A program made the translations under genes and the position numbers. Below the pieces are notes generated by a model that was given only the letters and a program-made list of their open reading frames with translations, did not search any database and was not told where the DNA came from. From positions 18,321 through 82,320 of the forward strand of contig CAZQVF010000002.1 of NCBI GenBank assembly GCA_964596735.1: a stretch of DNA of 64,000 nucleotides. Reading direction: 5' to 3'. Shown piece after piece: positions 5,502-60,938 of the stretch. Numbering within the stretch: the stretch's first letter is position 1; every line of letters begins with the position of its first letter. The stretch is from an uncultured Gammaproteobacteria bacterium. GTDB lineage: Bacteria > Patescibacteriota > Patescibacteriia > UBA2591 > UBA6264.

Positions 5502-5507
5502 TTTAAC

Positions 5508-6494: not shown

Positions 6495-6615
6495 ATAAAA
6501 TATTATGCATAGAAAAAAAGCAAGAAAGATAGCTAAGGTTATGAAAGAAAAAGGGGTAAAAAAGCTGTCAAAAAATCAAAAAAGAAAACTAAAAAACCAA
6601 TTTAAATAAAAAACA

Positions 6616-9231
6616 ATGAAAACAGTTTATTACTTTGGCGGCAAAAAGGCAGATGGCCGAGCCGAAATGAAAGACCTTTTAGGGGGAAAAGGCGCTAATT
6701 TAGCAGAAATGGTTAATTTGGGTTTACCCGTACCACCTGGATTTACTATTACCACTAAAGTTTGTCAATATTTTTTACAACATCATGGCAAATTACCATT
6801 GAATCTTGATTCAGAAATTAAAAAATCTATTCAAAAAATAGAGAAAAGTGTTGGTAAAAAATTTGGTGATGTTAATAATCCTTTATTAGTTTCTGTGCGC
6901 AGTGGATCAAAATTTTCCATGCCTGGAATGATGGATACGGTTTTAAATTTAGGATTAAATGACAAAACCGTGCTAGGTTTAGCCAAGCAATCAAATAATT
7001 ATCGTTCTGCCTTTGATGCTTATCGTCGTTTACTTCATATGTTTGGCGACGTTGTTCTTGGGGTAGATAAAAAATTATTTGAGCAGATTTTGACTCAGAC
7101 TAAAAAAAGATTAAAAATTGAGTTTGACACTGAATTGACAGGACAAGATTTAAAAAATCTTGTTACTAAATACAAAAAATTAATTAAACAAAAAACAAAA
7201 AAAGCTTTTCCTCAGGATCCTTGGCAACAATTAACCATGGCTAGGGATGCTGTTTTTAAAAGCTGGAATGTTCCTCGGGCCAAAACTTACAGAAGGTTAA
7301 ATAAAATTTCTGAAGACTTAGGCACAGCCGTGAATGTTCAGGCCATGGTTTTTGGTAACCTAGGTGACCATAGTGCCACTGGGGTTGGATTTACTCGTGA
7401 TCCAGCTACTGGCAAAGATAGGTTTTATGGGGAATATTTAATTAACGCCCAAGGAGAAGATGTGGTTGCTGGAATCAGAACTCCCAAACAAATTCAAGAA
7501 TTAAAAAAAGAAATGCCTTTGATTTATAAAAGGCTTTATACTTTGACAAAAAAATTAGAAAGACACTATAAAGATATTCAAGATTTTGAGTTCACAGTTG
7601 AAAGAAATAAATTATATATTCTTCAAACCAGAAATGGCAAGAGAACGGCTCAAGCGGCAATTAAAATTTCCGTGGACATGGTTAAACAAGGGTTAATTAC
7701 TAAAAAACAAGCTGTTTTAAGATTTGAACCAGCTCAAATAGACCAATTATTACACCCCATTATTAGTCCCCAGGCTAAGGTCAAAGTTGTCGCTAAAGGC
7801 CTGCCTGCTTCACCAGGGGCCGGGGTGGGTAAGGTTGTTTTTAGTGCCGATGAAGCCGTTAAACAAAGTAAAAAGGGTCCGGTAATTTTAGTTAGAACAG
7901 AAACTTGTCCTGATGACATTCATGGCATGGACGTAGCTCAAGGTGTTTTAACCGCCAGAGGCGGGATGACTAGTCATGCCGCTGTTGTGGCTAGGGGGAT
8001 GGGTAAATGTTGTGTGGCTGGTTGTGAATCAATTAAAGTAGATGAGAAAAAGAAAAAGATTTTTATTGACAAACTTGTTGTTAAAACAGGGGATTGGTTG
8101 ACTTTAAATGGAACAAAAGGCCAGGTAATCTTAGGTAAAGTAAAGACAATTGAACCTAAATTAAGTGGTGATTTTGGCTATTTTATGAAATGGGTTGACC
8201 AAATTCGTAAAATTAAAGTGCGAACAAATGCTGATAATCCCAAAGACGCAAAAGTAGCTAGAGAATTTGGGGCTCAAGGCATTGGCCTGTGTCGAACCGA
8301 ACATATGTTTTTCGCCCAAGAACGTTTACCTTTTATGCAGCAAATGATTTTAGCTGACAATGAAGAACAACGAAGAAAAGCTTTAAACAAACTTTTGCCT
8401 TTTCAAAAGAAAGACTTTAAAGGTTTGTTTAAAACAATGAAGGGCTTTCCTGTAACGATTAGAACATTAGATCCTCCTTTGCATGAGTTTTTACCAAAAA
8501 CTAAAAAAGAAGCTCAAATATTAAGTAAAAAGATTAAAGTCTCAGAAAAAAAGATTTGGGAAAAAGCTGAAGAATTGGCAGAAGTTAATCCCATGCTTGG
8601 TCATCGAGGTTGTCGTTTAGGTATTACTTATCCAGAAATTACCGAGATGCAAGTGAAGGCGATTATCTCAGCCGCTTGTGAATTGGCCAAACAAAAGATT
8701 AATGTTGTTCCGGAAATTATGATTCCTTTGGTTGGTCATTTAAATGAATTTGTTGACCAAGAAAAATTAGCTAGAAAAACAGCTGGACAGACCATGAAAA
8801 AGTATAAGGTTAGAGTGAAGTATACGGTGGGAACAATGATTGAGGTTCCTCGAGCTGCTTTAACCGCTGATCAGATTGCCAAACATGCTGAATTCTTTTC
8901 TTTTGGCACTAATGATTTAACGCAAATGGGTTTTGGTTTTTCCAGAGATGATGCTGGAAAGTTTATTAAAATCTATTTAGAAAAGGATATTTTTAAAAAT
9001 GATCCTTTTCAGGTGTTAGACCAACAAGGCATTGGCCAATTAGTAAAAACAGGCATTGCCAAGGGTAGAAAAACTAGAAAAGATTTAAAAGTGGGCATTT
9101 GCGGAGAACATGGCGGTGAACCAAATAGTGTTAAATTTTGCTGTAAAGTAGGTATGAATTATGTTAGCTGTTCTCCTTATCGAGTGCCTATTGCCAGATT
9201 AGCCGCGGCTCAAGCAGTGATTGAGAAATAA
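6616..9231 (+). CDS. ppdK: Pyruvate, phosphate dikinase
   Basis: 871 aa. N-terminal ATP-grasp region (GGKGANLAEM), central phospho-His mobile domain (GGMTSHAAVVARGMGKCCVAGC), C-terminal PEP-utilizing TIM barrel (GLCRTEHMF, NDLTQ). Confidence 0.93.
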   Translation: MKTVYYFGGKKADGRAEMKDLLGGKGANLAEMVNLGLPVPPGFTITTKVCQYFLQHHGKLPLNLDSEIKKSIQKIEKSVGKKFGDVNNPLLVSVRSGSKFSMPGMMDTVLNLGLNDKTVLGLAKQSNNYRSAFDAYRRLLHMFGDVVLGVDKKLFEQILTQTKKRLKIEFDTELTGQDLKNLVTKYKKLIKQKTKKAFPQDPWQQLTMARDAVFKSWNVPRAKTYRRLNKISEDLGTAVNVQAMVFGNLGDHSATGVGFTRDPATGKDRFYGEYLINAQGEDVVAGIRTPKQIQELKKEMPLIYKRLYTLTKKLERHYKDIQDFEFTVERNKLYILQTRNGKRTAQAAIKISVDMVKQGLITKKQAVLRFEPAQIDQLLHPIISPQAKVKVVAKGLPASPGAGVGKVVFSADEAVKQSKKGPVILVRTETCPDDIHGMDVAQGVLTARGGMTSHAAVVARGMGKCCVAGCESIKVDEKKKKIFIDKLVVKTGDWLTLNGTKGQVILGKVKTIEPKLSGDFGYFMKWVDQIRKIKVRTNADNPKDAKVAREFGAQGIGLCRTEHMFFAQERLPFMQQMILADNEEQRRKALNKLLPFQKKDFKGLFKTMKGFPVTIRTLDPPLHEFLPKTKKEAQILSKKIKVSEKKIWEKAEELAEVNPMLGHRGCRLGITYPEITEMQVKAIISAACELAKQKINVVPEIMIPLVGHLNEFVDQEKLARKTAGQTMKKYKVRVKYTVGTMIEVPRAALTADQIAKHAEFFSFGTNDLTQMGFGFSRDDAGKFIKIYLEKDIFKNDPFQVLDQQGIGQLVKTGIAKGRKTRKDLKVGICGEHGGEPNSVKFCCKVGMNYVSCSPYRVPIARLAAAQAVIEK

Positions 9232-13264: not shown

Positions 13265-14974
13265 ATGGAAATTCCTTTGGAAAAATTAAAAGAACTTTTG
13301 GTTTCACCAGGTCATATTCCTGAGAAGGAATTTAATGATTCTGTTAAAAAAGCTAAGGAAGAAAACACTTCTTTGCAAAATTTTTTAGTAGAAAAAGGTT
13401 TAATCTCAGATAAAAATTTAGGAAAGACTATTGCTGAACATTTTGATTATCACTTTGTTGATCTTAAAAAAGAAGAGATTTCTGAAGAAATTCTAAGAAT
13501 AGTTCCTGAATTAGTCGCTCGCATGCAAGAAGTGATTGCTTTTGATAGAGGCAAAGATGGTTTTAAAATAGCCATGGCCAATCCAAATAACTATGAGATG
13601 GTTAAATGGTTGGAAAAAAAGACCGGAGAGAAGGTCAGGGTATATTACGCTACTTCTTTTGGAATTCAAGATTCTTTAAAGTTTTATCGCAAAAAAATAA
13701 CAGAAGAATTTGATGATATTATTAAAACTCAGGTTAAAGAAGCAAAAAGATTAAATGTGAAAGCAGAAGACATTCCCATTATTAAAATTGTTGATACTTT
13801 AGTTGAATATGCTTATGAAAACGGGACCTCAGATATTCACATTGAACCATTAGATGAAAAAACTCAGGTTAGGTTTAGGATTGACGGAGTTTTACACAAT
13901 GTTGTCAGTTTACCAAGAGATATTCATGGTTTAGTTGTTACTCGCATTAAGGTTTTAAGTCGACTCCGCACAGATGAACATTTTGCCGCTCAAGATGGAA
14001 AATTTCAGGTTGAATTAGAAGCTTTAACTGGCTTTAGAAGAAAACAAGATAAATTTGATATCAGAGTTTCCATTGTCCCAGTCACTGATGGAGAAAAAAT
14101 AGTGATGCGACTTTTGTCAGAAAAAGCCCGTCGCTTTACCTTAAAAGGATTGGGTTTTCGTCCTCAAGATCATAAAAAAATTAAAAACACTATTAAAAAA
14201 CCTTATGGTATGGTTTTATCTACTGGACCAACCGGTTGTGGTAAAACCACTAGTCTTTATGCTATTTTAAAGATTTTAAATAAACCAAGTGTAAATATTA
14301 CTACAATTGAAGATCCTGTTGAATATGACGTTGAAGGAATTAGTCAGATTCAAGTTAACACTAAAACTGGTTTGACTTTTGCCAAGGGTTTACGTTCAAT
14401 TGTTAGACAAGATCCAGATATTATTATGGTTGGAGAAATTCGTGACGAAGAAACAGCTGATATTGCTATTAATTCAGCCATGACTGGTCACTTAGTTCTC
14501 TCTACAATGCATGCTAATACAGCGGCAACTAATTTAGTTCGTTTAATAGATATGGGCGTAGAACCGTTCTTGGTTGCTTCTTCAATTAATGTTGTTTTTG
14601 GCCAAAGGTTGGTAAGAAAAATCTGTGAAAAATGCCGATATAGCTATGAGGTTAATCGCCAAGAATTAAAAAAACTTAATCTTTCCTCAAAATTAATTGA
14701 TAAAATCCTTGGTAAAAAACAAAAAATCAGAGTTTATAAAGGTGAGGGTTGTCGAGCCTGTAATGAAAGCGGATATACTGGTCGAATCGGGATTTTTGAA
14801 ATTTTAGAAATTAGTGACACCCTTAAACAAATGATTATGCGTCGAGCCAATGCTGATGAACTTGAAGGTCAAGCCATTAAAGAAGGGATGCACTCAATGA
14901 TGGAAGATGGAATTGAAAAAGTACTTACGGGAATTACCACTATTGATGAGGTATTAAGGGTGACCAGAGAATAG
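13265..14974 (+). CDS. pilB: Type IV pilus assembly ATPase PilB (GspE family)
   Basis: N-terminal T2SS-E N domain, Walker A STGPTGCGKTT, Asp box, His box, tetracysteine zinc motif (CEKC ... CRAC). Confidence 0.9.
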   Translation: MEIPLEKLKELLVSPGHIPEKEFNDSVKKAKEENTSLQNFLVEKGLISDKNLGKTIAEHFDYHFVDLKKEEISEEILRIVPELVARMQEVIAFDRGKDGFKIAMANPNNYEMVKWLEKKTGEKVRVYYATSFGIQDSLKFYRKKITEEFDDIIKTQVKEAKRLNVKAEDIPIIKIVDTLVEYAYENGTSDIHIEPLDEKTQVRFRIDGVLHNVVSLPRDIHGLVVTRIKVLSRLRTDEHFAAQDGKFQVELEALTGFRRKQDKFDIRVSIVPVTDGEKIVMRLLSEKARRFTLKGLGFRPQDHKKIKNTIKKPYGMVLSTGPTGCGKTTSLYAILKILNKPSVNITTIEDPVEYDVEGISQIQVNTKTGLTFAKGLRSIVRQDPDIIMVGEIRDEETADIAINSAMTGHLVLSTMHANTAATNLVRLIDMGVEPFLVASSINVVFGQRLVRKICEKCRYSYEVNRQELKKLNLSSKLIDKILGKKQKIRVYKGEGCRACNESGYTGRIGIFEILEISDTLKQMIMRRANADELEGQAIKEGMHSMMEDGIEKVLTGITTIDEVLRVTRE

Positions 14975-14999
14975 ATATTTTTTAATTTAATATATCTTT

Positions 15000-16046
15000 A
15001 TGTTAAAAAAAATAAGTACTATTGATAAAGTTTTTCTTGCTAATAATATTTCTGTTATGATTAAGGCCGGCTTGCCTTTAAGAGAAGCGGTAGCTACATT
15101 GCAGGAACAAACTAAATCTAAAGTATTTAAAAAAATTCTTGAGGATATTATTAAACATCTTGATAATGGAGAATCTTTAGCAGATAGTTTAGCTAGACAT
15201 CCTCGAGATTTTAATCAGCTTTTTATTAATATTATTAGAGTAGGGGAAGCGAGTGGAACTTTAGAGGAAAACTTAAAATACCTGGCCATTCAATTAGAAA
15301 AAAGTTATGATCTTCATCGAAAAGTAAAAGGGGCGATGATTTATCCCTTACTTGTTTTGACTAGTACTTTTGTTTTAGGATCAGCTTTGGCTGTCTTTAT
15401 TTTGCCTAAACTTTTACCTCTTTTTAAAAGTTTTGATGTACAACTGCCCTTGCCTACAAAAGTCTTAATCTGGGTGACAGAGGCAATTCAAAATCATGGA
15501 CTGTTAATCTTTGGTGGTTTAATTGGTCTTATTATTTTATTTACCTTCCTTTCCCGTTTAAAACCAGTTAAAAAAATTAATCATAAAATCCTTTTAAGAA
15601 CCCCTTTATTTGGTCGAATCTCCCGCAGTAATAACCTAGCTCAATTCTGTCGTACCTTAGGGATCTTGTTAAAAAGTGGCATTCCTGTAGTACAAGGACT
15701 GGAAATTACTTCTCAAACCTTAAAAAACATGAGTTATAAAAAAGCTTTAGTTGAAACCTCTGATAAAGTACAAAGAGGAAAACCCATTAGTGATCATTTA
15801 AAAAATGAGGGCTTTCTTTTCCCAGTCACTGTCTCTAAGATGATTCAGGTAGGAGAAAAAACTGGCAGTTTAGAAGAAACCTTGCTTCATTTAGCAGGAT
15901 TTTATGAAAAAGAAATTGATAATGTGACTAAGAATCTTTCCAACATCTTAGAACCTATCTTATTAATCGTTATCGGTTTGGTGGTTGGTTTTATTGCCAT
16001 TGCTATTATTCTGCCGATTTACAAATTAACCGGCGGATTTAGATAA
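15000..16046 (+). CDS. pilC: Type IV pilus inner-membrane platform protein PilC (GspF family)
   Basis: Two GspF repeats, each with the conserved helical segment followed by TM helices. Confidence 0.85.
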   Translation: MLKKISTIDKVFLANNISVMIKAGLPLREAVATLQEQTKSKVFKKILEDIIKHLDNGESLADSLARHPRDFNQLFINIIRVGEASGTLEENLKYLAIQLEKSYDLHRKVKGAMIYPLLVLTSTFVLGSALAVFILPKLLPLFKSFDVQLPLPTKVLIWVTEAIQNHGLLIFGGLIGLIILFTFLSRLKPVKKINHKILLRTPLFGRISRSNNLAQFCRTLGILLKSGIPVVQGLEITSQTLKNMSYKKALVETSDKVQRGKPISDHLKNEGFLFPVTVSKMIQVGEKTGSLEETLLHLAGFYEKEIDNVTKNLSNILEPILLIVIGLVVGFIAIAIILPIYKLTGGFR

Positions 16047-16053
16047 AATAAGT

Positions 16054-16500
16054 ATGTTTAAAAAAGGCTTTACTCTTGTTGAGATAATACTAGCTATTAC
16101 TATTATTATTTTCCTTGCTGGCTTGGTTGTGCCCACGGGTATACGTTTTTATCAAACCCAACAATTAGACACAGCGACTGATGGAATTATTCAGGCTTTA
16201 AGAAGAGCCCAATTAAAAGCCATGTCTCAAGGAGATAATAATTTTGGTGTTTATGTTGGCTCTGGTCAAACCGGTCAATATTTTTTATTTACAGGTAATT
16301 CTTATGAAAATAGAACTGACGAAGAAATTTTCGGGGCTAGCAATAATATTTCGTTCAGTGGTGTTTCAGAAGTATTATTTTCTAAAACACAAGGTAAGCC
16401 AACTATTACTGGAACAGGTGACGATATTGTTTTAACCCAAGGTACAGAAACAAAAACAATTAACATTAATGAAGCGGGTAGAATTAATTTTGAATTATAA
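16054..16500 (+). CDS. Prepilin-like protein (type IV pilin / pseudopilin), class III signal peptide
   Basis: N-terminus MFKKGFTLVEIILAITIII. The G|FTLVE cleavage and N-methylation motif is followed by a hydrophobic helix. Confidence 0.7.
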   Translation: MFKKGFTLVEIILAITIIIFLAGLVVPTGIRFYQTQQLDTATDGIIQALRRAQLKAMSQGDNNFGVYVGSGQTGQYFLFTGNSYENRTDEEIFGASNNISFSGVSEVLFSKTQGKPTITGTGDDIVLTQGTETKTININEAGRINFEL

Positions 16501-16503
16501 GTT

Positions 16504-19326
16504 ATGAAACATCAAAAAGCTCAAAGCTTAATTGAATTATTAATCGCCCTTGGCGTTTTTGTTTTGGTTGTCAGTTCGATTAATTTTTTAAGTCTTGATA
16601 CATATATAGCTGATCGAGCTGGTGGAGAAAGAACCCAAGCCACTTTTTTGGCTAAAGAGGGGATTGAAGCAAGTAAATCTATTAGCAACAACAGCTGGGG
16701 TGATTTAATCTTGGGCAATCATGGAATTAGTATCTCTGATGAACATTGGGTTTTTCAAGGAACGGCCGATGATGTTAGCGATCAATTAACTCAAGGAGAG
16801 CGGGTTATTGTTGTTGAACAAGACGAAGCTTGTAATCTAAATTGTAAAAAAATTACCTCTCAGGTGACCTGGGATTTAACAGACACTCGTCCCCAAACCG
16901 TAACCTTGGTCACTTATTTAACTAATTTGTTTAGTCTCAATTGGACCCAGACGCTTTTAGCAGACTTTGATTTAGGAAAGAGAAACAGTGTTCAGACCAC
17001 TGAGGTGGGTGATGGGGAGATAAAGTTATCCTTGATCGGCGACTGGAACAATGCCTCTGTTGTTGCCGACTTTGATACAGATGCTAATGGTGATGTCCGG
17101 GATATTTTTATTAATAATAATATTGCCTATGTTATTACCATGAATAATGGTGGTGGCGGTGAAGAAGAATTTTTTGTTTTAGATATTTCTGATATTAGTA
17201 ATGGAAATATTAATTTGTTAGGATCAACTGATTTGGGAACAGAATTAGGTAATGATGCTCGTAGTTTTCATGTTTCTGAAGATTATGCCTATATTGCCAG
17301 TGATGATAATAATGCCGAATTAATGATTGTTCGTTTAAGTGATTATACTGTAACTAATCAGTACAATGTTCCAGACAATCTTAATGGCCTTGATGTTTTT
17401 GTTGTTGATGATATTGCTTATTTAGTGACTAATGTAAATAATTCTGAAGAATTCTATGTCTTGGATGTTTCTAATCCTGAAGAAGAGATTACTCTGTTAA
17501 ATTCATTAGAAGTTGACGCCACTGTTAATAAAATTGATGTTGTGGGTAATTATGCTTATTTAGCCACTGAAGGTAATAATAAAGAATTATCAGTTGTTCG
17601 TTTAACAGATAATACTGAAGTAAATACTTTTGATATTACTGGTAATGGTGATATGACTTCTGTTCAGGTTATTGGCGATATCGCTTATATGGGGAGGGAA
17701 AGCAGTGGTGACTCAGAGTTTTATGCCTTGGATGTTTCTAACCCAGAAGGAGTAATTACTGAACTTGATTCAATTGATTTAGAAGGCGATGATGTTGAAA
17801 CAATTTCTATTTATAATGATTTGGCTTATTTGGGGACTGATAATGCAGACAAAGAAGTGGTCGTCATTGATTTAAATACTTTTATAGAAACAGCTTCTGT
17901 TGATTTAATCGGCTCAAATTATGCTTATGCGATTTGGTTTCAAGGCGCTCATATTTATGCCGGAACAACAAATAATGATTATGAAGTTCAAGTGATTCAA
18001 AGTGGCCAAGGCGGTTGGGAAGTCCCAGAAATGATTGGTAGCATTGATCTTCCCGGGAACGAGGATGCTAAAGATGTTTTTGTTTTAGGTGATTATGCTT
18101 ACATCGGGACTAAACCAGCTAGACACGGTGACAATTTTTTCATCATTGACATTTCAGACCCGGAAAATCCTGATCCAAGAGGTTCTCTTGATATAGGAAA
18201 GGATATTCATGGTGTTTATATCTCTGGCAACTATGCTTATCTGTCCTTGCATGATGATGATGAAGGATTAAGAATTGTTGATATTACCAATAAGGACAAT
18301 CCTATTAAACTTGATTATTTTAATGCCCCAGGAGACAAGTGTTTTAAAGATGTTTCTGTTTTAGATGATTATGCCTATATCGTAGGAAAAGAGGCAAGAA
18401 ACGATCCAGAATTTTTCATCATTGATGTTGAAGAGCCGGACGATTTAGAAGACGAGGCTGAAGGAAGTTTAGAGCTGGACACTGAGGCTTATGCCATATA
18501 TGTCTCAGGAGATTATGCTTATTTAGCCACTAGTGATAATGATAAAGAATTAATGGTGGTTGATATTTCAGATGAGGAAGAACCAGAGATGGTTGGTTCA
18601 TACAATGCTGATAGCGATGCTAATGCGAGGGATATTTTTATTGAAAATGACACTGCTTATTTAGTGACTAAAGAAAACTCTTCTGCAGGGATAAATCCTG
18701 AATTCTATATTTTAGATATTAGCACACCAACGGTTCCTAGTTTAATAGGTTCTTTAGACATAGATGACAACGTTGATACTCTCACTGTTTCAGGAGATTA
18801 TGCTTATTTGGGAACAGATGAGAATGATGCTGGGCTTCAAATAATCGATATTAGTGATTTAGCCAATCCTTTGCTTTATAGTACTTTTGATGTTGGTGAT
18901 GATGTTAAGGGTATTGATTTTGATGAGGGTCATGTTTATTTGGCCACTAAAAATGGTGATTTAGAGGCGCCAATTATTGGTCCAGGCGGATTACCAACTG
19001 ATTATTCTCAATGGGGCATTTTCACTTCTTCTTCTTATGATTCTGGGGAAACAAATACTTCATGGAATAATATCTTATGGTCAGAAAGTGGGACCGGTAC
19101 TTTAAAATTCCAGGTGCGCACTGCCGATACTGAAGAAAATCTTTCTTCGGCTACCTGGGTTGGATCAGACGGGACTAATTCAACTTATTATACTTTTTCT
19201 GAACAAAACATTATTATTGATCCTGGAGCCAGTGGTAAACAATGGGCTGAATATCGAGTATTTTTTACTGGTGACAGTACAGACAGTCCTATCTTAGAAA
19301 GTATAACTATTATTTATAGCAACTAA
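16504..19326 (+). CDS. Giant (940 aa) pilin-like protein: prepilin-type N-terminus followed by about 14 LVIVD-type beta-propeller repeats and a C-terminal beta-sandwich-like domain
   Basis: N-terminus MKHQKAQSLIELLIALGVFVLVV. Repeated ~40-55 aa units of the form V.GDYAYLAT..ND.EL.VVDISDP..P. Very acidic (D/E-rich) composition. Confidence 0.75.
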   Translation: MKHQKAQSLIELLIALGVFVLVVSSINFLSLDTYIADRAGGERTQATFLAKEGIEASKSISNNSWGDLILGNHGISISDEHWVFQGTADDVSDQLTQGERVIVVEQDEACNLNCKKITSQVTWDLTDTRPQTVTLVTYLTNLFSLNWTQTLLADFDLGKRNSVQTTEVGDGEIKLSLIGDWNNASVVADFDTDANGDVRDIFINNNIAYVITMNNGGGGEEEFFVLDISDISNGNINLLGSTDLGTELGNDARSFHVSEDYAYIASDDNNAELMIVRLSDYTVTNQYNVPDNLNGLDVFVVDDIAYLVTNVNNSEEFYVLDVSNPEEEITLLNSLEVDATVNKIDVVGNYAYLATEGNNKELSVVRLTDNTEVNTFDITGNGDMTSVQVIGDIAYMGRESSGDSEFYALDVSNPEGVITELDSIDLEGDDVETISIYNDLAYLGTDNADKEVVVIDLNTFIETASVDLIGSNYAYAIWFQGAHIYAGTTNNDYEVQVIQSGQGGWEVPEMIGSIDLPGNEDAKDVFVLGDYAYIGTKPARHGDNFFIIDISDPENPDPRGSLDIGKDIHGVYISGNYAYLSLHDDDEGLRIVDITNKDNPIKLDYFNAPGDKCFKDVSVLDDYAYIVGKEARNDPEFFIIDVEEPDDLEDEAEGSLELDTEAYAIYVSGDYAYLATSDNDKELMVVDISDEEEPEMVGSYNADSDANARDIFIENDTAYLVTKENSSAGINPEFYILDISTPTVPSLIGSLDIDDNVDTLTVSGDYAYLGTDENDAGLQIIDISDLANPLLYSTFDVGDDVKGIDFDEGHVYLATKNGDLEAPIIGPGGLPTDYSQWGIFTSSSYDSGETNTSWNNILWSESGTGTLKFQVRTADTEENLSSATWVGSDGTNSTYYTFSEQNIIIDPGASGKQWAEYRVFFTGDSTDSPILESITIIYSN

Positions 19327-19838
19327 TGATTTACAAAAAGAAAAAAAGTTTTACGTTAATTGAACTGCTTATTTATCTTGGCATAGTGGCCGGGATTTTA
19401 GTTGTGGCTGGTGCTTTTACCTGGAGTATTATTAAAGGAAGCGCAAAAGGCGCTTGTGTTCGAGAGGTGCAACAAAATGGACGTTTGGCCATGGAAGTAA
19501 TTACTCGAGAGATAAAGGCCGCTTCTGGAATTAATAGTCCTTTAGCTGGAGAATCAGCCGAGACCTTGTCTTTGATTATGTCTGACAGTGGTTTAAATCC
19601 AACTATATTTGAATTATCAAATGATCAGATTCTTTTAAGTCAGGGGGTGGATGGACCCTATACTTTAACTACTGATCAGGTTTTGGTTTCTAATCTTGAT
19701 TTTACTAATCTTTCCTACGCAGATACATCTGGAACAGTCAGAATAGAAATGACCTTAGATTATAATAATCTTGGTTCTCAAACCGCTTATGAGGCTTCGA
19801 TTGATTTAAGTACCACGGTTTCTTTAACTGAGGAATAA
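19326..19838 (+). CDS. Prepilin-like minor pilin/pseudopilin
   Basis: N-terminus KSFTLIELLIYLGIVAGILVV (class III signal peptide). Confidence 0.65.
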   Translation: MIYKKKKSFTLIELLIYLGIVAGILVVAGAFTWSIIKGSAKGACVREVQQNGRLAMEVITREIKAASGINSPLAGESAETLSLIMSDSGLNPTIFELSNDQILLSQGVDGPYTLTTDQVLVSNLDFTNLSYADTSGTVRIEMTLDYNNLGSQTAYEASIDLSTTVSLTEE

Positions 19839-19841
19839 AAC

Positions 19842-20237
19842 ATGAAACATCAACAAGCATATATTGCCTTAATTACCATTTTAATCATCTCTGCCGTAAC
19901 CTTATTAATTGCGGCTAGTGCTGGTCTTTTTGGTATTTCTGAAACAGACATGGGTCTAATCGAAGATCAATCTACTCAGTCTTATTATTTGGCTAATGCC
20001 TGTGCTGAATATGCCTTGGAAAGGTTAAAGAATAATGTAAATTATGCTGGTGACGAAACCTTAGATATTGATGATGGCAGTTGCTATATTTATTTACCAG
20101 AAGGAAGTGGCAATGAGGATAGAATAATTAAAGCAACCGGCACTCTTGCTAATCAGACTAGAAAGGTTAAAATTATAATAGAAGAGATTAATCCTTTAAT
20201 GGTCATTAGCTCTTGGCAAGAGGTTTCTGAATTTTAG
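19842..20237 (+). CDS. Putative minor pilin (PilX-like) with atypical N-terminal hydrophobic helix
   Basis: MKHQQAYIALITILIISAVTLLIAAS lacks the canonical G-F-T-L-I-E but sits within the pilin gene run. Confidence 0.4.
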   Translation: MKHQQAYIALITILIISAVTLLIAASAGLFGISETDMGLIEDQSTQSYYLANACAEYALERLKNNVNYAGDETLDIDDGSCYIYLPEGSGNEDRIIKATGTLANQTRKVKIIIEEINPLMVISSWQEVSEF

Positions 20238-20254
20238 AATGTTTAATTTAAAAT

Positions 20255-22012
20255 ATGGGTAAATTTTCAAAAACAGGTTTTGGCTTAGATATCTCTGATT
20301 TTTCAATCGAGGTTCTTGAGCTTAGTTCAAAAGTAAAAGTAAAAACTTTTTCTAGAATAACCCTAGAGCCAGGCATAATTGAAAATGGTCTTATTCTTGA
20401 TAAGAAAAAATTAACTAAAAAACTCAAAGAACTTGTTGCTAAAACAAAAATAAAAACAAGTCAGGTTGTTTTATCTTTACCAGAATCAAAGGTTTTTATT
20501 CATGTTTTTAAGGTTCCTAAGGGATTAAAAAAGACTAATTTAAAAGATGCCATTGCCTTTGAGGCGCCTAAAGTCATTCCTTTAAACCAGGAAGAAATAT
20601 ATTGGGACTGTCAGACAATTTCCTCTCCAGCAAAATCAGCTCAACAATCTGTTTTATACATCGCTGTTTTTAAAAATATTATTGATACCTATATTGAAGT
20701 TTTAACCTTGGCTGAGTTAAAACCAGTTGTTTTTGAGATAGAATCATTGGCTTTGGCTCGGGCTTTATTGTTAGAATTAAAACCAGTTAACAGTTTGATG
20801 ATTGTTGATTTAGGGGCTCGAACAACTAATATTAGTATTTTTGGTAAAAACAAACAATTAAGATGGTCTTCAACAGTTTCTGTTGCTGGCAAGCATTTTA
20901 CTCAGGCAATTGAGGAAAAATTAAAAAAATCTACAGAACAGGCAGAAAAATTAAAAAGAGATAAGGGCTTGTCAGATAAAAGCATTGTTAAGCTTATTTT
21001 AGAGAAAGAACTTAAACCGATTATTGAGGAAATAAAAAATATTCTTGATTTTTATAATGAACCAGTAGACGAAATTATTTTAAGCGGGGGTTCAGCTCAA
21101 ATACCAGAAATTGTCTCTTATCTTTCTACTAAACTTGAGAAAAAGGTTAGTCTGGGCAAATCAGTAATTACCAAACAATTAAAAGGAACTTCTATTCTTT
21201 ATAACACGGTTATTGGCTTAGCCCTTAAGTCGCGTCAGGGGGCCAAAAAAGGAGAAATTAATTTATTACCTCAAAAAATTAAAACCAAAAAATCTTTTAT
21301 TAATAAAGAAACGCAGGAAAGCAGGCTTTTTCAAATATTTGGTTATGTTTTTCCCTTAGCCTCTATAGTCTTTCTTGGTTGGGTGATTATTAATTACACA
21401 CCCCAACAACCACGTTTCTCAAATATTGCCCAGAAAATTTTTATAAACGAAGAGGTTGTTCCTGAAGAAAAAGAATCAGAACCAGTTAAAGCGATTAAAG
21501 AAGAAACAATAAGTGAAGAAATGGTGGTTGAACAAGAACCAGTTTCTGAAGAAGTAGTAGAAGAAATGGTGGTTGAACAAAAAAAAACCACCCAGATTAT
21601 TATTAATCAAGGGATTAGCCGTTTAAATGTAAGAAAAGGTCCTGGATCTGAATATGATATTGTGACCAAGGTTTATCCTGGAGAGAGTTATCCACTATTG
21701 CAAGAACAAGGGGAATGGTATAAAATAAGGGTAGATGAGGATACAGAGGGATGGCTTTCTGCCACTTATACAACTTTACAAGAAAAGACCACTTTATTAG
21801 AAGAGAAAATTGGTCAAATTACTGTCAAAGAAAGTGTTTTAAATGGATTAAATCTTCGTGATGGTCCAGGAACAAATTATACTATTATTACCAAGGTTTA
21901 TCCTGGAACAAATTATCTACTATTGCAAGAACAAGGAGAATGGTATAAAATAAGGGTAGATGAGGATACAGAGGGATGGCTTTCTGCCACTTATGTTTTA
22001 AAATTAGAATAA
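20255..22012 (+). CDS. pilM: Fusion protein: PilM (actin-like pilus assembly ATPase fold), a PilN-like TM segment, an acidic linker and two tandem SH3b (bacterial SH3) domains
   Basis: N-terminal ~330 aa has the PilM/FtsA-like fold and its position in the locus. There is a TM helix at about aa 360-380. Two C-terminal ~60-aa repeats (RLNVRKGPGSEYDIVTKVYPGESYPLLQEQGEWYKIRVDEDTEGWLSATY) are typical of SH3_3. Confidence 0.7.
   Translation: MGKFSKTGFGLDISDFSIEVLELSSKVKVKTFSRITLEPGIIENGLILDKKKLTKKLKELVAKTKIKTSQVVLSLPESKVFIHVFKVPKGLKKTNLKDAIAFEAPKVIPLNQEEIYWDCQTISSPAKSAQQSVLYIAVFKNIIDTYIEVLTLAELKPVVFEIESLALARALLLELKPVNSLMIVDLGARTTNISIFGKNKQLRWSSTVSVAGKHFTQAIEEKLKKSTEQAEKLKRDKGLSDKSIVKLILEKELKPIIEEIKNILDFYNEPVDEIILSGGSAQIPEIVSYLSTKLEKKVSLGKSVITKQLKGTSILYNTVIGLALKSRQGAKKGEINLLPQKIKTKKSFINKETQESRLFQIFGYVFPLASIVFLGWVIINYTPQQPRFSNIAQKIFINEEVVPEEKESEPVKAIKEETISEEMVVEQEPVSEEVVEEMVVEQKKTTQIIINQGISRLNVRKGPGSEYDIVTKVYPGESYPLLQEQGEWYKIRVDEDTEGWLSATYTTLQEKTTLLEEKIGQITVKESVLNGLNLRDGPGTNYTIITKVYPGTNYLLLQEQGEWYKIRVDEDTEGWLSATYVLKLE
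21665..21994 (+). repeat. Intragenic direct repeat: about 105 nt at 21665-21769 repeated at 21890-21994. The core 78 nt is 76/78 identical and encodes the duplicated SH3b domain
   Basis: Read directly: ACCAAGGTTTATCCTGGA...CTATTGCAAGAACAAGG(G/A)GAATGGTATAAAATAAGGGTAGATGAGGATACAGAGGGATGGCTTTCTGCCACTTAT occurs twice. Confidence 0.85.
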
Positions 22013-41367: not shown

Positions 41368-41919
41368 ATGCCTACATATTTATGGATCATTATTGTCGTC
41401 GTTGTCCTTGTTGGGCTCATTTCTATCTTTAATACTTTGATTCGCTGGCGCAATCGAGTTAAAGAATCTTGGTCAGACATTGATGTTCAATTAAAACGTC
41501 GATACAATTTAATTCCTAACTTAGTTAATACGGTTAAGGGTTATGCGGCTCATGAGAAGCAAGTCTTTATTAATGTCACTGAGGCTCGAACCAAAGCCAT
41601 GGGAGCGGGCACGCCTAATGCCAAGGCTGATGCAGAAAAAGGATTAGCCGGGGCTTTAAAAAGTCTATTTGCCGTGGCCGAAAACTATCCTCAATTACGC
41701 GCCTCAGAAAACTTTCAAAAATTACAAGATGAGCTAACAGATACAGAAAATAAGGTTCAGGCCGCCAGAAGGTTTTATAACGGTAATGTTAGAGATTACA
41801 ATACAAAGCAAGAGGTTTTTCCCACTAATCTGATTGCTAGTCCTCTTGGCTTTAAAAAGGCTGAATTCTTTGAACTAGAAGAAGAGGAAGCAAAAAAAAC
41901 ACCTGAAGTCAAATTTTAA
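41368..41919 (+). CDS. lemA: LemA family membrane protein
   Basis: N-terminal TM followed by the LemA consensus (IRWRNRVKESWSDIDVQLKRRYNLIPNLV ... ENYPQL ... RRFYNGNVRDYN). Confidence 0.85.
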   Translation: MPTYLWIIIVVVVLVGLISIFNTLIRWRNRVKESWSDIDVQLKRRYNLIPNLVNTVKGYAAHEKQVFINVTEARTKAMGAGTPNAKADAEKGLAGALKSLFAVAENYPQLRASENFQKLQDELTDTENKVQAARRFYNGNVRDYNTKQEVFPTNLIASPLGFKKAEFFELEEEEAKKTPEVKF

Positions 41920-41928
41920 GCTAAAATA

Positions 41929-41967
41929 AAAGAAGCTTTGATGTATAATCAGGGCTTCTTTTTTTAT
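41929..41967. terminator. Bidirectional terminator hairpin (AAGAAGC..GCTTCTT plus T7) between lemA and rbcL
   Basis: Hairpin and T-run read directly. Confidence 0.45.
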
Positions 41968-41976
41968 TAAGATGAT

Positions 41977-43245
41977 TTATTTTGTTTTCCAGTGGTCCAA
42001 GGCTTGTTTTAGTTCAATATGGTTATGAGAATAAAACTTTAAAGGAATTCCTTTGGTGGCCGCTTCTACGGCTTGAACAGCGGCTCTGGCTCCGGCCCCA
42101 CTTCCTTGAGGATGTCCGTGCAAACCACCGCCAAAATTAATAACTAGGTTTGTTCCTAAAATTTCAACTAATTTATAGGCTAAGCCGGGATGAAGTCCGC
42201 CTGAAGCAATGGGCAAAACAGGTTTAAGCTTGCCCCAGTTTTCTCTTAGTTTATTAAATCCTCGCCAGTCTTCTTTTAATAATTCATTTACTTGAACAAC
42301 TTCTTTTTCTTCTCCTTCCATTTTTCCCACCACTGTGCCTGTATGAAACTGATCAATACCAGCTAAGCGAGCTAAATTGGCTACGACTAAAAAGGAAATG
42401 CCATGTTTTTTATTTCTAGTAAAAGCAGAATGACCAGCTCTATGCCCGTGAATAATCAAGCCCAAGTCTTGGTTTCTCAAAGACTGGACTCCGGCCCAAC
42501 CAGTAGTAACAATATCAACCATAACACATCTGCCCCCTAATCTTTTAACTAATTTTGCTCTTTGCAGCATTAGCTCTGTTGGCGCGGTCACATTAAATAC
42601 ATAAATCTTTTTTTGTTTTGTTTCTTTTTCTACTTGTTTTTTAAGGGCTAAAACCTTTTTGACCCTGTCTTCAAATTTATTAAAACTCAGGTCGGTTAAA
42701 TTTTCATCATCTTTGATTAAATCAACTCCGTTTTTAAATATTTCTGCGGCTAATTTAGCGTTTTGAGTTGAAGTTAAGCCTATTTTGGGTTTTATAATAC
42801 AGCCAACCAAGGGCCTTCTTTTTATTCCGGTAATCCTTCTTATTCCATTAATCCCCCATTTTGGTCCTGGATATTGGTTAATATATTTTTCAGGAAATTC
42901 AATGTCTTGCAAACGTAAATTCTTAACTAATTTCATGCTAAAAATATTTCCCCCAATGCTAGAAAGAAGCTGAGGAATACTATTTGGTTCAAACAAGGCT
43001 AAGGGGTAAGCAATTTTAAAAATACCTGTTCTGGTGTTAACTGAAAAAACCTTTGCCGCTAATTTATTAAAGACTTTGTCTGATAAGGTTTTTACTTTTG
43101 TCCAGGTGCCAATTGAAGATTCTTCAGCTACTTTTTGGGCTAATTTATTTAAAGATAACTTAGATTCCCCATAATAAGTGACGATAATCTCTTCTTGGGG
43201 TTTTGGCTTATATTTTAGCCTTAAATAGGTTGATTTTTTTTTCAT
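41977..43245 (-). CDS. rbcL: Ribulose-1,5-bisphosphate carboxylase/oxygenase large subunit, form II/III-like (archaeal/CPR type)
   Basis: Carbamylated Lys region GVDLIKDDENL, GCIIKPKIGLT, IIHGHRAGHSAF, FGGGLHGHPQGSGAGARA. 422 aa. No small subunit gene adjacent. Confidence 0.9.
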   Translation of the reverse strand: MKKKSTYLRLKYKPKPQEEIIVTYYGESKLSLNKLAQKVAEESSIGTWTKVKTLSDKVFNKLAAKVFSVNTRTGIFKIAYPLALFEPNSIPQLLSSIGGNIFSMKLVKNLRLQDIEFPEKYINQYPGPKWGINGIRRITGIKRRPLVGCIIKPKIGLTSTQNAKLAAEIFKNGVDLIKDDENLTDLSFNKFEDRVKKVLALKKQVEKETKQKKIYVFNVTAPTELMLQRAKLVKRLGGRCVMVDIVTTGWAGVQSLRNQDLGLIIHGHRAGHSAFTRNKKHGISFLVVANLARLAGIDQFHTGTVVGKMEGEEKEVVQVNELLKEDWRGFNKLRENWGKLKPVLPIASGGLHPGLAYKLVEILGTNLVINFGGGLHGHPQGSGAGARAAVQAVEAATKGIPLKFYSHNHIELKQALDHWKTK

Positions 43246-43246
43246 A

Positions 43247-43717
43247 TTAACTTATTTTTTTAATTATTTTATCAATAATATTGCTAGTGGAAAATATTTT
43301 TTTATTTTTATCTGGAAACTCTTTTAATTCCCAATAGGGCCGATCATATTTTTTCGTCTTTCTTTTTTTAACAATAGCAATTATATCTGGCTTTAAATAC
43401 TCTAAAACAGACAAGGATTCTTCCATAGATCTGGATTTGTCTATGTAGACGTAATCTATATTTTTAATTCCATTAATCACTTCGGCTCTTTGCTTTGCAC
43501 TGTTAATTGGTTTTTTTTCACCTTTTTCTTGTTTCGTTAAAAAACTTGATTGAATAAAAATGATGACAATATCAGCAAATTTTTTAAATTGTCTGATTGA
43601 ATAAATGTGTCCGGGGTGAATAATGTCAAAAACTCCTTTTTTTATTAAAACTTTTTTATTTTGTTTTTGGGCCTGATCTATGATTTGTTTTAATTTCTTT
43701 TTTTTAGAAATAATCAT
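43247..43717 (-). CDS. Cytidylyltransferase-like nucleotidyltransferase (HxGH class) embedded between rbcL and the R15P isomerase
   Basis: GVFDIIHPGHIYSI motif; about 150 aa; second member of this fold in the window. Confidence 0.55.
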   Translation of the reverse strand: MIISKKKKLKQIIDQAQKQNKKVLIKKGVFDIIHPGHIYSIRQFKKFADIVIIFIQSSFLTKQEKGEKKPINSAKQRAEVINGIKNIDYVYIDKSRSMEESLSVLEYLKPDIIAIVKKRKTKKYDRPYWELKEFPDKNKKIFSTSNIIDKIIKKIS

Positions 43718-44673
43718 AAAAACGGATATATCTTTTTCAAATGAGTTTTAATTTGGCTTGGTTTAATAACCCCTGCTTCACAAATAATGCCAGTAATATA
43801 TTTCCTGGGAATACGATCAAAGGCAAAATTAATAATCTTAAGACCTTTAGGCGCATTTGGCCAAAGTTCTTTTGGCGAACGTCTTTCTATTTTAATCCAT
43901 GATTTAGCATAAAATTTTAAAAGCGTGGTCGCAATGTATAAAGGGACTTTTTCTCTATAAGCAATAGATCCAATGCCAAAGCTACCAATTTTATTAATTA
44001 CTGAGCCATCTGGCAAAAGAGCATCCGCTCCCAGAATAATCTTATCCATCATTAAATTTTTACCTGAATGATGGGAAATTAAAAAACCGGCTGAAGAGTC
44101 AGCGACCATGGTTGTTGGAATTTTTGCTTGAAGTAATTTTTTAGAAGTAATTCTGCCCTGGAAAAGAGGTCTTGTTTCTGTGTTATAAACCTTAAATTTC
44201 TTTTTATTCTTTTTTGCTTTAATTAAGATTTGTTCTACTAACCAAGAATGGCAATGAGTTAAAATGTCGTCATCTTTGGTTTTAATTATTTTTCGTCCAT
44301 TTTTAATAGTTAAATCAGCCGCTTTTTTCATCATTTTTAAAAAATCATCGGCTGCCTTTTTTGCTTCATTTTTTGCTTCCACCACGTTTTTCGGTTTGAC
44401 CTGGCTTAATTGGGAAAATATATATTTGACCCCATTTTGAGCCATGGGTTCTGTGGGTCGAGCTGAAAGCAAAAGATCAGCTGCTTTTTTAAAATCTCTT
44501 TTCCAATTACCTACATTTTTAGCTTTAATCCTTAAACTATAGGTTTTTAAGGCCTTGATTGTGGTTCTAGCCACCGCTGTTGCCCCTTGAACCTCTAGTG
44601 ATTTAATGTTTTTAAAGGTTTGCTTTATTGTTTTCATATAATTATATAATAAAGCTTCTCTTATTTTTGTCAA
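43714..44673 (-). CDS. Ribose-1,5-bisphosphate isomerase (eIF-2B alpha/beta/delta-like, e2b2 family)
   Basis: eIF-2B-like fold with LGADALLPDGSVINKIGSFGIGSIA segment; 4-bp overlap with the upstream gene. Confidence 0.75.
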   Translation of the reverse strand: MTKIREALLYNYMKTIKQTFKNIKSLEVQGATAVARTTIKALKTYSLRIKAKNVGNWKRDFKKAADLLLSARPTEPMAQNGVKYIFSQLSQVKPKNVVEAKNEAKKAADDFLKMMKKAADLTIKNGRKIIKTKDDDILTHCHSWLVEQILIKAKKNKKKFKVYNTETRPLFQGRITSKKLLQAKIPTTMVADSSAGFLISHHSGKNLMMDKIILGADALLPDGSVINKIGSFGIGSIAYREKVPLYIATTLLKFYAKSWIKIERRSPKELWPNAPKGLKIINFAFDRIPRKYITGIICEAGVIKPSQIKTHLKKIYPFL

Positions 44674-44719: not shown

Positions 44720-45178
44720 ATGGTTAAAACAAAGGAAAAAGACAAAAAAAACAAGAAGAAAGAGCAAGAAACAGCAATTCAAACCATTGTTAATCATTAT
44801 TTTCATACCAAGGGTTTGTCTTTAAAAGAGATTAAAGAAAACGCCAAGAAAAGAAAAATAATTTATTCACGCTATACCAGGCCAGCCAAACAATTACTAG
44901 AATTAGCCGGCTCTGTTAAAAAAGCAAAATCAGCTATTAATAAAGTGGCTGACTGGGCTAAGTCAAGAAACCTAGACTATGCCATTGAAACTGTTTTTAA
45001 AAAATGGCTGGAACTGGACAGGTTAAAACCAAAAGAGATTGTTAAAAAGCCGTTTTTTCAAGGCAATCCCATGGTCTGGAGTCAGACAAAAAAGAAATGG
45101 TTTGTCATTGGTGAAGATAGTGAGTGGCGTGAATTTGTTGGTGAAGAATCTGAGATTAAGTGGAAAATTATTAAATAG
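44720..45178 (+). CDS. Hypothetical lysine-rich protein
   Basis: ORF with flanking terminator; no family recognised. Confidence 0.4.
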   Translation: MVKTKEKDKKNKKKEQETAIQTIVNHYFHTKGLSLKEIKENAKKRKIIYSRYTRPAKQLLELAGSVKKAKSAINKVADWAKSRNLDYAIETVFKKWLELDRLKPKEIVKKPFFQGNPMVWSQTKKKWFVIGEDSEWREFVGEESEIKWKIIK

Positions 45179-59933: not shown

Positions 59934-60938
59934 TTAAATATTTTTACCAATGTATTCAGCCATGGCAATATATCGGCAGGCATAACCATACTCATTGTCA
60001 TACCAAGCGACTATTTTAATCAAGTCATCAGTAACTTGAGTTAATGATAAATCAACAACACCGGCATGAGGATTACCAATAAAGTCTGAAGAAACCAAAG
60101 GTTCCTCAGTAAAATCTAAAACATCTTTTAAATCTCCTTTGGCTAGTTCTTTAAACGTGTTATTAACTGTTTTAATCGTCGCTGGCTTTTCTTTTAAACA
60201 AACCAGGTCAATTAAAGATCCTACGGAGACAGGAACTCGAACAGCCATTCCCTCAAACTTTCCTTTTAATTCAGGAATTATGGTAGTGACTGATTTTATT
60301 GCTCCGGTGGTCGTTGGAATTATATTTCGCATTACTCCTCTGGCTCGGCGTAAATCTTTATGGGGTAAGTCAAGTAATTTCTGATCATTGGTAAAGGCGT
60401 GAACCGTAGTCATAAATCCCTGTTTGACCACATAAAAATCATGCAAGGTCTTGATTAATGGTAATAAACAATTAGTCGTGCAAGAGCCATTGGAAACAAT
60501 TAGATCTTTTTGAGGATTGAATTCTCCTTGATTAACTCCACCTATTAATGTTGGAATATTATCATCTTTAGGATTGGCAGAAAGCAAGACTCTTTTGGCT
60601 CCAGCTTTTAAATGTTTTTCAGCTAATTCCTTGGTAGTAAAATGACCGGTGCATTCTAAGACTAGATCTACATTTAATTTTTTCCAAGGTAAATTTGTCG
60701 GGTCTTTTTCTGCAAAAACAGGGACCTCCCTATTATTAACTACTAGATTATTTCCATTGCTACTGACTGAATATTTAAAGCTCCCATAAATCGAATCATG
60801 TTTTAAAAGATGAGCTAAGGCTTTAACTTCATTTAAATCATTAATTGCCACCACTTCTAATCCTGGAGAATCAAAAGCAAGGCGGAAACTTGGTCGACCA
60901 ATACGACCAAAGCCGTTAATGGCTATTTTAATAGACAT
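59934..60938 (-). CDS. gap: Glyceraldehyde-3-phosphate dehydrogenase
   Basis: NGFGRIGR Rossmann motif and the catalytic SNGSCTTNCL segment. Confidence 0.92.
   Translation of the reverse strand: MSIKIAINGFGRIGRPSFRLAFDSPGLEVVAINDLNEVKALAHLLKHDSIYGSFKYSVSSNGNNLVVNNREVPVFAEKDPTNLPWKKLNVDLVLECTGHFTTKELAEKHLKAGAKRVLLSANPKDDNIPTLIGGVNQGEFNPQKDLIVSNGSCTTNCLLPLIKTLHDFYVVKQGFMTTVHAFTNDQKLLDLPHKDLRRARGVMRNIIPTTTGAIKSVTTIIPELKGKFEGMAVRVPVSVGSLIDLVCLKEKPATIKTVNNTFKELAKGDLKDVLDFTEEPLVSSDFIGNPHAGVVDLSLTQVTDDLIKIVAWYDNEYGYACRYIAMAEYIGKNI

Follow-up and report, generated by a model that had tools for sequence, protein, structure and literature searches.

The 64,000-nt stretch of contig CAZQVF010000002.1 analysed here (the window) carries three minus-strand genes, e2b2, NT and rbcL, encoding a putative ribose-1,5-bisphosphate (R15P) isomerase, a 156-residue nucleotidyltransferase (NT) and the large subunit of a RuBisCO. 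The locus is probably best described as a known salvage operon into which NT has been admitted as a co-expressed passenger or as a facultative accessory. Thus, e2b2 and rbcL would provide the last two steps of the AMP, or pentose-bisphosphate, salvage pathway, with activities assigned from homology and from conserved catalytic residues. NT has been lost in sister genomes that keep e2b2 and rbcL intact and is, therefore, not an obligatory step of the module.

Organization of the e2b2-NT-rbcL operon

The three genes are real and are arranged as one tight predicted operon on the minus strand, in the order promoter, e2b2, NT, rbcL and terminator. The features considered below, in window coordinates, are as follows.

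44646-44673, minus strand: sigma-70-like promoter (TTGACA, 16 nt, TATTAT), directly 5' of e2b2; pattern match only
43714-44637, minus strand: e2b2, first gene of the operon, 307-residue eIF-2B-related protein (PF01008), putative ribose-1,5-bisphosphate isomerase
43247-43717, minus strand: NT, 156-residue HxGH nucleotidyltransferase with a cytidylyltransferase-like fold (PF01467)
41977-43245, minus strand: rbcL, last gene of the operon, 422-residue Form III (III-c) RuBisCO large subunit (PF00016 and PF02788)
41928-41962, no strand assigned: hairpin with a 15-bp stem and T/A runs on both sides; pattern match only
41368-41919, plus strand: lemA, convergent with rbcL, beyond the hairpin
4332-4793, plus strand: distant NT paralogue of 153 residues, RfaE-domain-II-like (PF01467), outside the operon

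The stop codon of e2b2 and the ATG of NT share the tetranucleotide ATGA, and a single base separates the TAA stop codon of NT from the ATG of rbcL. The first-pass annotation of this DNA, made from its letters and open reading frames (ORFs), had described a 156-residue NT with the motif GVFDIIHPGH between the other two genes and a 4-bp overlap with e2b2, exactly as found. It had also placed e2b2 two genes downstream of rbcL on the same strand; the strand is correct, but e2b2 is the first gene and lies upstream of rbcL. The mechanical ORF of e2b2 (43714-44673) begins at TTG 44673, to which the operon had been extended. This TTG belongs to the TTGACA -35 box and thus the start of e2b2 is ATG 44637, giving 307 residues. 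The same 307-residue product is the gene model in the public collections of NCBI, JGI, ENA and Logan, where its contig measures 288,535 bp.

The promoter, with 11 of 12 matches, is the top-scoring site of the region in the promoter scan. A second promoter-like site just 5' of NT (43713-43740) scores within shuffle expectation for AT-rich DNA and is not claimed. The hairpin between lemA and rbcL is likely a bidirectional intrinsic terminator that closes the operon. A scan for RNA families returned nothing near any gathering score, for riboswitches or other known RNAs, in or around the operon.

Loss and pseudogenisation of NT within the clade

Four sister loci (L172-L175) were picked by their RuBisCO, which is 72-77% identical to that of the window. 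In L174 and L175 e2b2 and rbcL lie 14 bp apart without NT, within the same synteny of Fmt, ThyX/hyp153, e2b2, rbcL and ClpB. Similarly, the two genes are separated in L173 by a 123-bp spacer devoid of NT similarity. An NT pseudogene occupies the same place in three independent assemblies (L172:4530-5000, L012:150-640 and L108:1990-2460), and the three copies have in common a 13-codon (39-nt) N-terminal deletion, a TAA at Q56, a TAG at Q76 and frameshifts. Beside the pseudogene, rbcL is intact in all three loci and e2b2 is intact in L172 and L108, while L012 begins inside e2b2. The motif GVFDIIHPGH is still readable in the pseudogenes, which argues that the inactivation is recent.

In a neighbour-joining (NJ) tree of concatenated E2b2 and RbcL, the NT-positive locus L004 groups with the NT-less L174 and L175 with a bootstrap value of 98%, and the other loci, whether NT-positive, NT-less or with the pseudogene, form a group at 84%. 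In the simplest history, NT would have entered the short e2b2-rbcL spacer once, in the ancestor of this one clade, with at least two independent losses or inactivations to follow. Several descendants would have kept NT under purifying selection, and at least two others would have deleted or pseudogenised it, retaining e2b2 and rbcL.

Linkage of NT to rbcL and e2b2 outside the clade

The DNA around members of the NT family was gathered from species-representative genomes, from metagenomes and by exact look-up, and all loci were searched with the proteins of the window. Wherever the contig reaches, the loci with an NT at least 64% identical (L001-L004, L092-L097, L012 and L108) display the order e2b2-NT-rbcL, and they also share ThyX, a 152-residue neighbour, LemA, LigB, a 464-residue protein and ClpB. 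These loci are close relatives and the shared gene order is thus inherited synteny. The MAG records of L002, L003 and L004 (CAZCKV01, CAZAGY01 and CAZDOL01) are titled 'uncultured Gammaproteobacteria bacterium'. Their contigs are syntenic with Patescibacteria loci at 67-85% protein identity (ClpB, LemA, LigB and III-c RuBisCO), and the Gammaproteobacteria labels look wrong.

At about 20 loci with an NT of 50-62% identity, neither rbcL nor e2b2 was found within 4-10 kb of NT where that much flank is present. These loci belong to Dojkabacteria, a contig labelled Saccharibacteria, 'Nanobdellati' and other DPANN archaea, and UGA-recoded lineages. All-against-all clustering of the flanking ORFs of 21 loci revealed no neighbour family shared across lineages. 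The closest NT outside the operon clade (P0019, 62%; L176:2-1518) follows an archaeal-type FEN1/XPG gene and overlaps its end; contig L176 also carries FtsZ. A NUDIX gene adjoins NT in two lineages, but the subtypes differ, being YfcD/IDI-like in Dojkabacteria (L081:6001-6973, with an overlap of 8 bp) and RppH-like in a DPANN lineage (L090:5531-6480 and L082:4807-6504).

The first-pass annotation had put NT forward as a possible new accessory step of the pathway, and had held that random placement in other genomes, without conserved linkage to rbcL-e2b2, would refute the idea. Linkage is found in one syntenic clade only; the loci outside this clade lack it, and inside it NT has been deleted or pseudogenised. 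A new accessory step is, thus, quite unlikely. In addition, the literature searched holds no link of a cytidylyltransferase or nucleotidyltransferase to RuBisCO or to the pentose-bisphosphate module.

A rare nucleotidyltransferase family of CPR bacteria and DPANN archaea

NT matches PF01467 with 48.3 bits, above the cut-off of 21. The motif GVFDIIHPGH occupies residues 28-37, and the STT-type motif reads STS in the window protein. An alignment of 26 family sequences has GVFDIIH-GH, K65-G66, P70, N72, R77, D88, W129 and S143 of the STT motif as invariant positions; H34-P-G-H37 and S143, invariant among these family members, constitute the two nucleotide-binding signatures of the superfamily. 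The AlphaFold (AF2) structure prediction, a check proposed in the first-pass annotation, gives a model with a pLDDT (predicted local distance difference test) of 90 and a predicted fold of the HldC/CCT/TagD type. The best folds matched by this model are B. pseudomallei HldC 5xf2 (TM-score about 0.7), P. falciparum and mammalian CCT, TagD and the RibL-like 3glv. When the NT profile is compared with the sequences of the PDB, the ethanolamine-phosphate cytidylyltransferase ECT 3elb comes first, followed by HldC 5x9q and 3glv, all at 49 bits or less. The nearest relatives beyond the family are ECT-like tandem-domain proteins, one of them fused to a HIT domain and one consisting of a CDP-alcohol phosphatidyltransferase (CDP-OH_P_transf), two cytidylyltransferase (CT) domains and GT2 in a single fusion. 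Where NT is intact its ratio of non-synonymous to synonymous substitution rates (dN/dS) is 0.06-0.14, similar to those of E2b2 and RbcL. NT is very probably an active small-molecule nucleotidyltransferase (NTP + phospho-acceptor -> NDP-acceptor + PPi) of the GCT/ECT/HldC/RibL clade. Judged from its nearest relatives, an alcohol-phosphate or a sugar-phosphate is the best guess for the acceptor.

The family is tightly delimited. In a database search some 70 clusters share at least 48% identity, and beyond them a gap extends down to 38% identity and 80 bits. When 1.84 billion cluster representatives were searched exhaustively with a profile, only 9 clusters came out at E<=1e-30, and only about 12 NT loci at 50% identity or more occur among 185,579 species genomes. 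NT misses all function-specific equivalogs of NCBIfam, with 72 bits on RfaE-II TIGR02199 (cut-off 181.5), 28.7 on TagD TIGR01518 (165.4), 16-22 on the PPAT models (103-104) and 19 on RibF (241). Its paralogue at 4332-4793, whose related fold had been recognized in the first-pass annotation, matches PF01467 with 61.8 bits, displays 27% identity to NT over 115 residues and remains below the cut-off of TIGR02199 (89.2 bits, cut-off 181.5).

Several NT genes carry an in-frame TGA at otherwise invariant Gly positions (G20, G28, G36, G66 and G143), with TAA or TAG as the real stop (L008:3918-4391, L009:10001-10474, L098:6708-7181, L100:424-897, L101:910-1383 and L102:5032-5505). TGA for Gly is the signature of genetic code 25 (Gracilibacteria/Absconditabacteria), and the NT family thus also occurs in recoded lineages of the Candidate Phyla Radiation (CPR). 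Across CPR bacteria and DPANN archaea, identity between family members does not fall below 48%, which suggests inter-domain transfer. NT represents a well-delimited, very rare and uncharacterised enzyme family, found in CPR bacteria, in lineages using code 25 and in DPANN archaea.

In a narrower form of the passenger reading, NT would be a housekeeping enzyme of cofactor or envelope metabolism parked in the operon, either a RibL-type FAD synthetase or a CDP-alcohol or ADP-sugar synthase serving lipids or the cell surface. In favour of such a role are weak but significant matches to archaeal proteins named FAD synthase (P0081-P0091), to PF06574 and to 3glv, the gene of the FAD-dependent ThyX two genes away, ECT as first PDB profile match and the CDP-OH_P_transf, CT and GT2 fusion among the nearest relatives. 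In contrast, at the frequencies given above the family is much rarer than a core cofactor function would require, and the wide margins by which NT misses the curated RfaE-II, TagD, PPAT and RibF cut-offs count against the idea as well. A housekeeping role of this kind is rather unlikely.

RbcL is a Form III-c enzyme

RbcL is, as far as its sequence tells, a catalytically complete Form III RuBisCO of sub-form III-c and not the Form II/III enzyme initially annotated. All the catalytic motifs are in place, as had been stated, namely KPK at residues 152-154, IKDDEN with the carbamylated Lys at 177-182, HGHRAGH at 266-272, FHTGT/VGKMEG at 300-311, SGGLHPG at 348-354 and GGGLHGHP at 372-379. The alignments of RbcL with 2cwx, 6hun, 8dht and 1geh, all solved III-b enzymes, run from end to end, and KPK, KDDE, HGHRA-H, HTG..GK, SGGLHPG and GGG..GHP are kept throughout. 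It passes the type III equivalog TIGR03326 (515.6 bits, cut-off 497.45) and fails the Form II model NF010002 (255 bits, cut-off 489). Similarly, the MtnW models are missed (182-235 bits, cut-offs 409-514), as are MtnW and OiaX taken together (182-238 bits, cut-offs 409-700).

The top solved relatives of RbcL are the archaeal Form III-b enzymes of P. horikoshii (2cwx, 380.7 bits, 45% identity), H. butylicus (6hun), A. fulgidus (8dht) and T. kodakarensis (1geh), while the II/III structure of M. burtonii (5mac) reaches 234.6 bits over residues 4-320 only. In a search of 5.8 billion proteins the nearest named relatives are three entries called 'RuBisCO long chain, Form III-c [uncultured bacterium]', at 75%, 65% and 64% identity, with 'type III' enzymes of Patescibacteria, including Komeilibacteria, Kuenenbacteria and Falkowbacteria, among the further ones; it is on these nearest named neighbours, rather than on a full reference phylogeny, that the assignment to III-c rests. 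Form III-c has been defined as a clade confined to the CPR, its similarity to III-b being about 50% (Jaffe et al. 2019, Mol Biol Evol 36:435, PMC6389311). The Form II/III label is thus ruled out by NCBIfam cut-offs, by PDB scores and by the named nearest neighbours. A Form IV RuBisCO-like protein (RLP), the outcome that in the first-pass annotation would have undone the salvage reading, is ruled out as well by the intact carboxylase residues and by the missed RLP equivalog cut-offs. The annotated absence of a small-subunit partner is also upheld: rbcL is flanked by NT and the convergent lemA, and no RuBisCO_small match occurs among the scanned ORFs of the window.

E2b2 and the salvage module

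E2b2 is a full-length match to PF01008 (205 bits). It passes TIGR00524, the MtnA-named eIF-2B-related subfamily (195.2 bits, cut-off 185.85), and scores 189.4 bits on the R15P-isomerase equivalog TIGR00511 (ribulose_e2b2), below the cut-off of 314.1. Its best solved relatives are the R15P isomerases of P. horikoshii and T. kodakarensis, 5yfj and 3a11 (137 bits), followed at a distance by MtnA 1t9k (94 bits) and the eIF2B subunits (64 bits or less). The motifs THCHS at 127-131 and LGAD at 202-205 are kept in the alignment with the R15P isomerases, and the Cys of THCHS and the Asp of GAD are presumably the catalytic residues of these enzymes. In addition, e2b2 is linked to rbcL in the window and in all related loci, including the outgroup. 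The assignment of E2b2 as a ribose-1,5-bisphosphate isomerase, already made in the first-pass annotation, is well supported, because the protein is closer to the solved R15P isomerases and holds an invariable place beside a Form III rbcL.

The names attached to some relatives would allow another module, that of methionine salvage, in which E2b2 is MtnA and the presumed RbcL is the RuBisCO-like enolase MtnW. The broad MtnA-named TIGR00524 is the best NCBIfam match of E2b2 to clear its cut-off, and a truncated 59-residue member of the RbcL cluster carries an enolase name. In contrast, RbcL has all the carboxylase residues (KPK, KDDE, HxHR, HTG..GK, SGG and GGG), passes the type III cut-off and stays far below those of MtnW, and E2b2 scores higher with R15P isomerases than with MtnA. 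The sequences thus effectively refute a methionine-salvage module, which retains only a very small probability. The 59-residue fragment itself (MBU4369924.1, P0482) falls in the same 90% cluster as RbcL; its NCBI name, '2,3-diketo-5-methylthiopentyl-1-phosphate enolase', is apparently the wrong name for a truncated RuBisCO.

In the proposed pathway, E2b2 would isomerise ribose-1,5-bisphosphate to ribulose-1,5-bisphosphate (RuBP), which the Form III-c RuBisCO would carboxylate to two molecules of 3-phosphoglycerate (3-PGA) destined for lower glycolysis. The archaeal/CPR AMP-salvage pathway named in the first-pass annotation is retained, with e2b2 and rbcL as its last two steps. The window also contains genes for pyruvate phosphate dikinase (6616-9231, plus strand) and GAPDH (59934-60938, minus strand), enzymes that could carry RuBisCO-made 3-PGA onward. 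Pyruvate phosphate dikinase also consumes AMP and PPi.

Absence of an adjoining AMP phosphorylase gene

The AMP phosphorylase gene deoA (PF02885, PF00591 and PF07831) was not found among the scanned window ORFs of at least 274 residues, in agreement with the first-pass annotation. In the outgroup locus L179, a metagenome contig whose RbcL is 65% identical to that of the window, e2b2, rbcL and deoA form a canonical consecutive cluster (5009-8805) without NT. Unlike in L179, deoA adjoins rbcL in no locus of the window's clade. This comparison indicates that the whole clade has lost deoA from the position beside rbcL, and the clade that would have gained NT is this same clade. The retention of e2b2-rbcL without an adjoining AMP phosphorylase gene raises the question of how R15P is supplied.

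Role of NT in the operon

One answer to that question would be NT itself. As a real accessory enzyme of the module, it would make or pyrophosphorolyse a compound of the nucleoside diphosphate (NDP)-pentose type and thereby feed or buffer R15P after the loss of deoA. By analogy with heptose-1-phosphate adenylyltransferase, the compound could be ADP-ribose-like or an adduct of R15P or ribose-1-phosphate. The overlapping gene junctions inside the operon, the purifying selection on NT and the sugar-1-phosphate adenylyltransferases HldC and RfaE domain II among its closest relatives in fold and sequence all fit such a role. So do the presence of deoA beside rbcL in the outgroup and in no member of the NT clade, and the NUDIX genes, which encode hydrolysers of NDP-linked compounds (NDP-X), adjoining NT in two unrelated lineages. 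In contrast, e2b2-rbcL persists in L174 and L175 although both NT and an adjoining deoA are missing, and a dead NT stands beside an intact e2b2 and rbcL in L172 and L108 and beside an intact rbcL in L012. No family member outside the clade lies near rbcL or e2b2, and the NUDIX neighbours come from different subfamilies. The ECT-like tandem cytidylyltransferases that are next in relationship, one of them joined to a CDP-alcohol phosphatidyltransferase, argue for alcohol-phosphate acceptors, and the literature searched describes no such reaction. An accessory role of this kind is therefore unlikely. The form of the idea that applies to the deoA-less clade, in which NT is an undescribed route into or out of the R15P pool, for instance by forming or pyrophosphorolysing an NDP-pentose or NDP-pentose-phosphate, is distinctly unlikely. 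Were it true, NT would be a fourth, facultative enzyme of the bacterial pentose-bisphosphate pathway, and a function would be at hand for a family specific to CPR and DPANN lineages.

The acceptor substrate of NT is most likely unrelated, or only loosely related, to the salvage pathway, and the passenger or facultative accessory described at the outset remains the preferred reading. Several observations weigh against it. The coupling-type junctions and a dN/dS of about 0.1 across 25-30% protein divergence show that NT is useful where it is kept, and genes predicted to be co-transcribed with two nucleotide-salvage genes, as NT is, are often functionally linked to them. The coincidence of the NT-gaining and the deoA-lacking clade is such that NT could conceivably compensate for deoA. 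Similarly, the NUDIX adjacency in L081, L090 and L082 may point to an NDP-X metabolite, or be a coincidence. Finally, the count of losses rests on an NJ tree of two proteins known to move laterally.

NT as a passenger or facultative accessory offers a counter-example to guilt by association, as gene overlap and co-transcription need not mean an obligatory role in a pathway. Here the rule fails because the sister genomes show NT deleted and pseudogenised.

Genomic surroundings of the operon

Divergent from e2b2 across an 82-bp spacer lies the gene of a lysine-rich protein of 152 residues (44720-45178, plus strand) with zero Pfam or NCBIfam matches. The outgroup L179 lacks it, whereas every locus of the clade, with or without NT, keeps it at the same position. 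A longer gene model of this neighbour in L172 has a helix-hairpin-helix match (HHH_8), and the protein may be a DNA-binding protein or a regulator.

Up to about 30 kb of the window, genes lie on the plus strand and the GC skew is positive; from about 42-49 kb they lie on the minus strand and the skew is negative. The cumulative skew reaches its maximum at about 40-42 kb. Convergent replichores would place a replication terminus near the operon. A type IV pilus-like cluster (13265-22012, plus strand) comprises a T2SSE ATPase, a T2SSF platform protein, a 940-residue LVIVD-repeat protein and a PilM-SH3 fusion. Such clusters are typical of CPR episymbionts.

Comparison with known systems

NT shares with HldC/RfaE-II, with GCT, CCT and ECT and with RibL-type FAD synthetase the Rossmann-like HxGH fold and the motifs GxFDxxHxGH, KG..RP.N..QR, VD and STT..I. 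In contrast, it is only 20-25% identical to any solved member of these groups and belongs to a tight family of its own, restricted to CPR and DPANN lineages. NadM-Nudix is a known pairing of a nucleotidyltransferase with a NUDIX hydrolase, and the loci L081, L090 and L082 resemble it in that NT adjoins a NUDIX gene. The likeness stops there, as the NT of the window has no NUDIX neighbour, the NUDIX subtypes differ between lineages and NT carries the cytidylyltransferase (FD) form of the motif instead of the NMNAT form.

The AMP, or pentose-bisphosphate, pathway of Thermococcus kodakarensis was reportedly described by Sato et al. in 2007 and Aono et al. in 2015. The window shares with it the succession of an R15P isomerase and a Form III RuBisCO leading to 3-PGA; E2b2 aligns end to end with the R15P isomerases of T. 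kodakarensis and P. horikoshii (Tk and Ph) and RbcL with the III-b enzymes of Tk, Ph, A. fulgidus (Af) and H. butylicus (Hb). It differs in its bacterial host, in a RuBisCO of sub-form III-c and not III-b, in the extra gene inside the operon, in an E2b2 below the TIGR00511 cut-off and in the AMP phosphorylase that was not found in the window.

The closest parallel is provided by the III-c/e2b2/deoA clusters of CPR bacteria, an earlier account of which is said to be that of Wrighton et al. in 2016. In these genomes III-c rbcL has e2b2 and deoA as near neighbours, and in some cases the genes are fused (PMC6389311). That paper describes consecutive or fused genes and the word 'transferase' occurs in it zero times (PMC6389311). 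The window departs from such clusters in that deoA is neither adjacent to rbcL nor present in the 64 kb, and in the 156-residue NT between e2b2 and rbcL. It agrees with them in the sub-form of RbcL (75% identity to deposited III-c and about 45-50% to III-b), in the place of e2b2 beside rbcL, in a Patescibacteria host and in the inferred role in nucleotide-ribose salvage (PMC6389311). The pair of e2b2 and III-c rbcL is a further instance of this published CPR module, and in its core the finding is more of the same biology and changes little.

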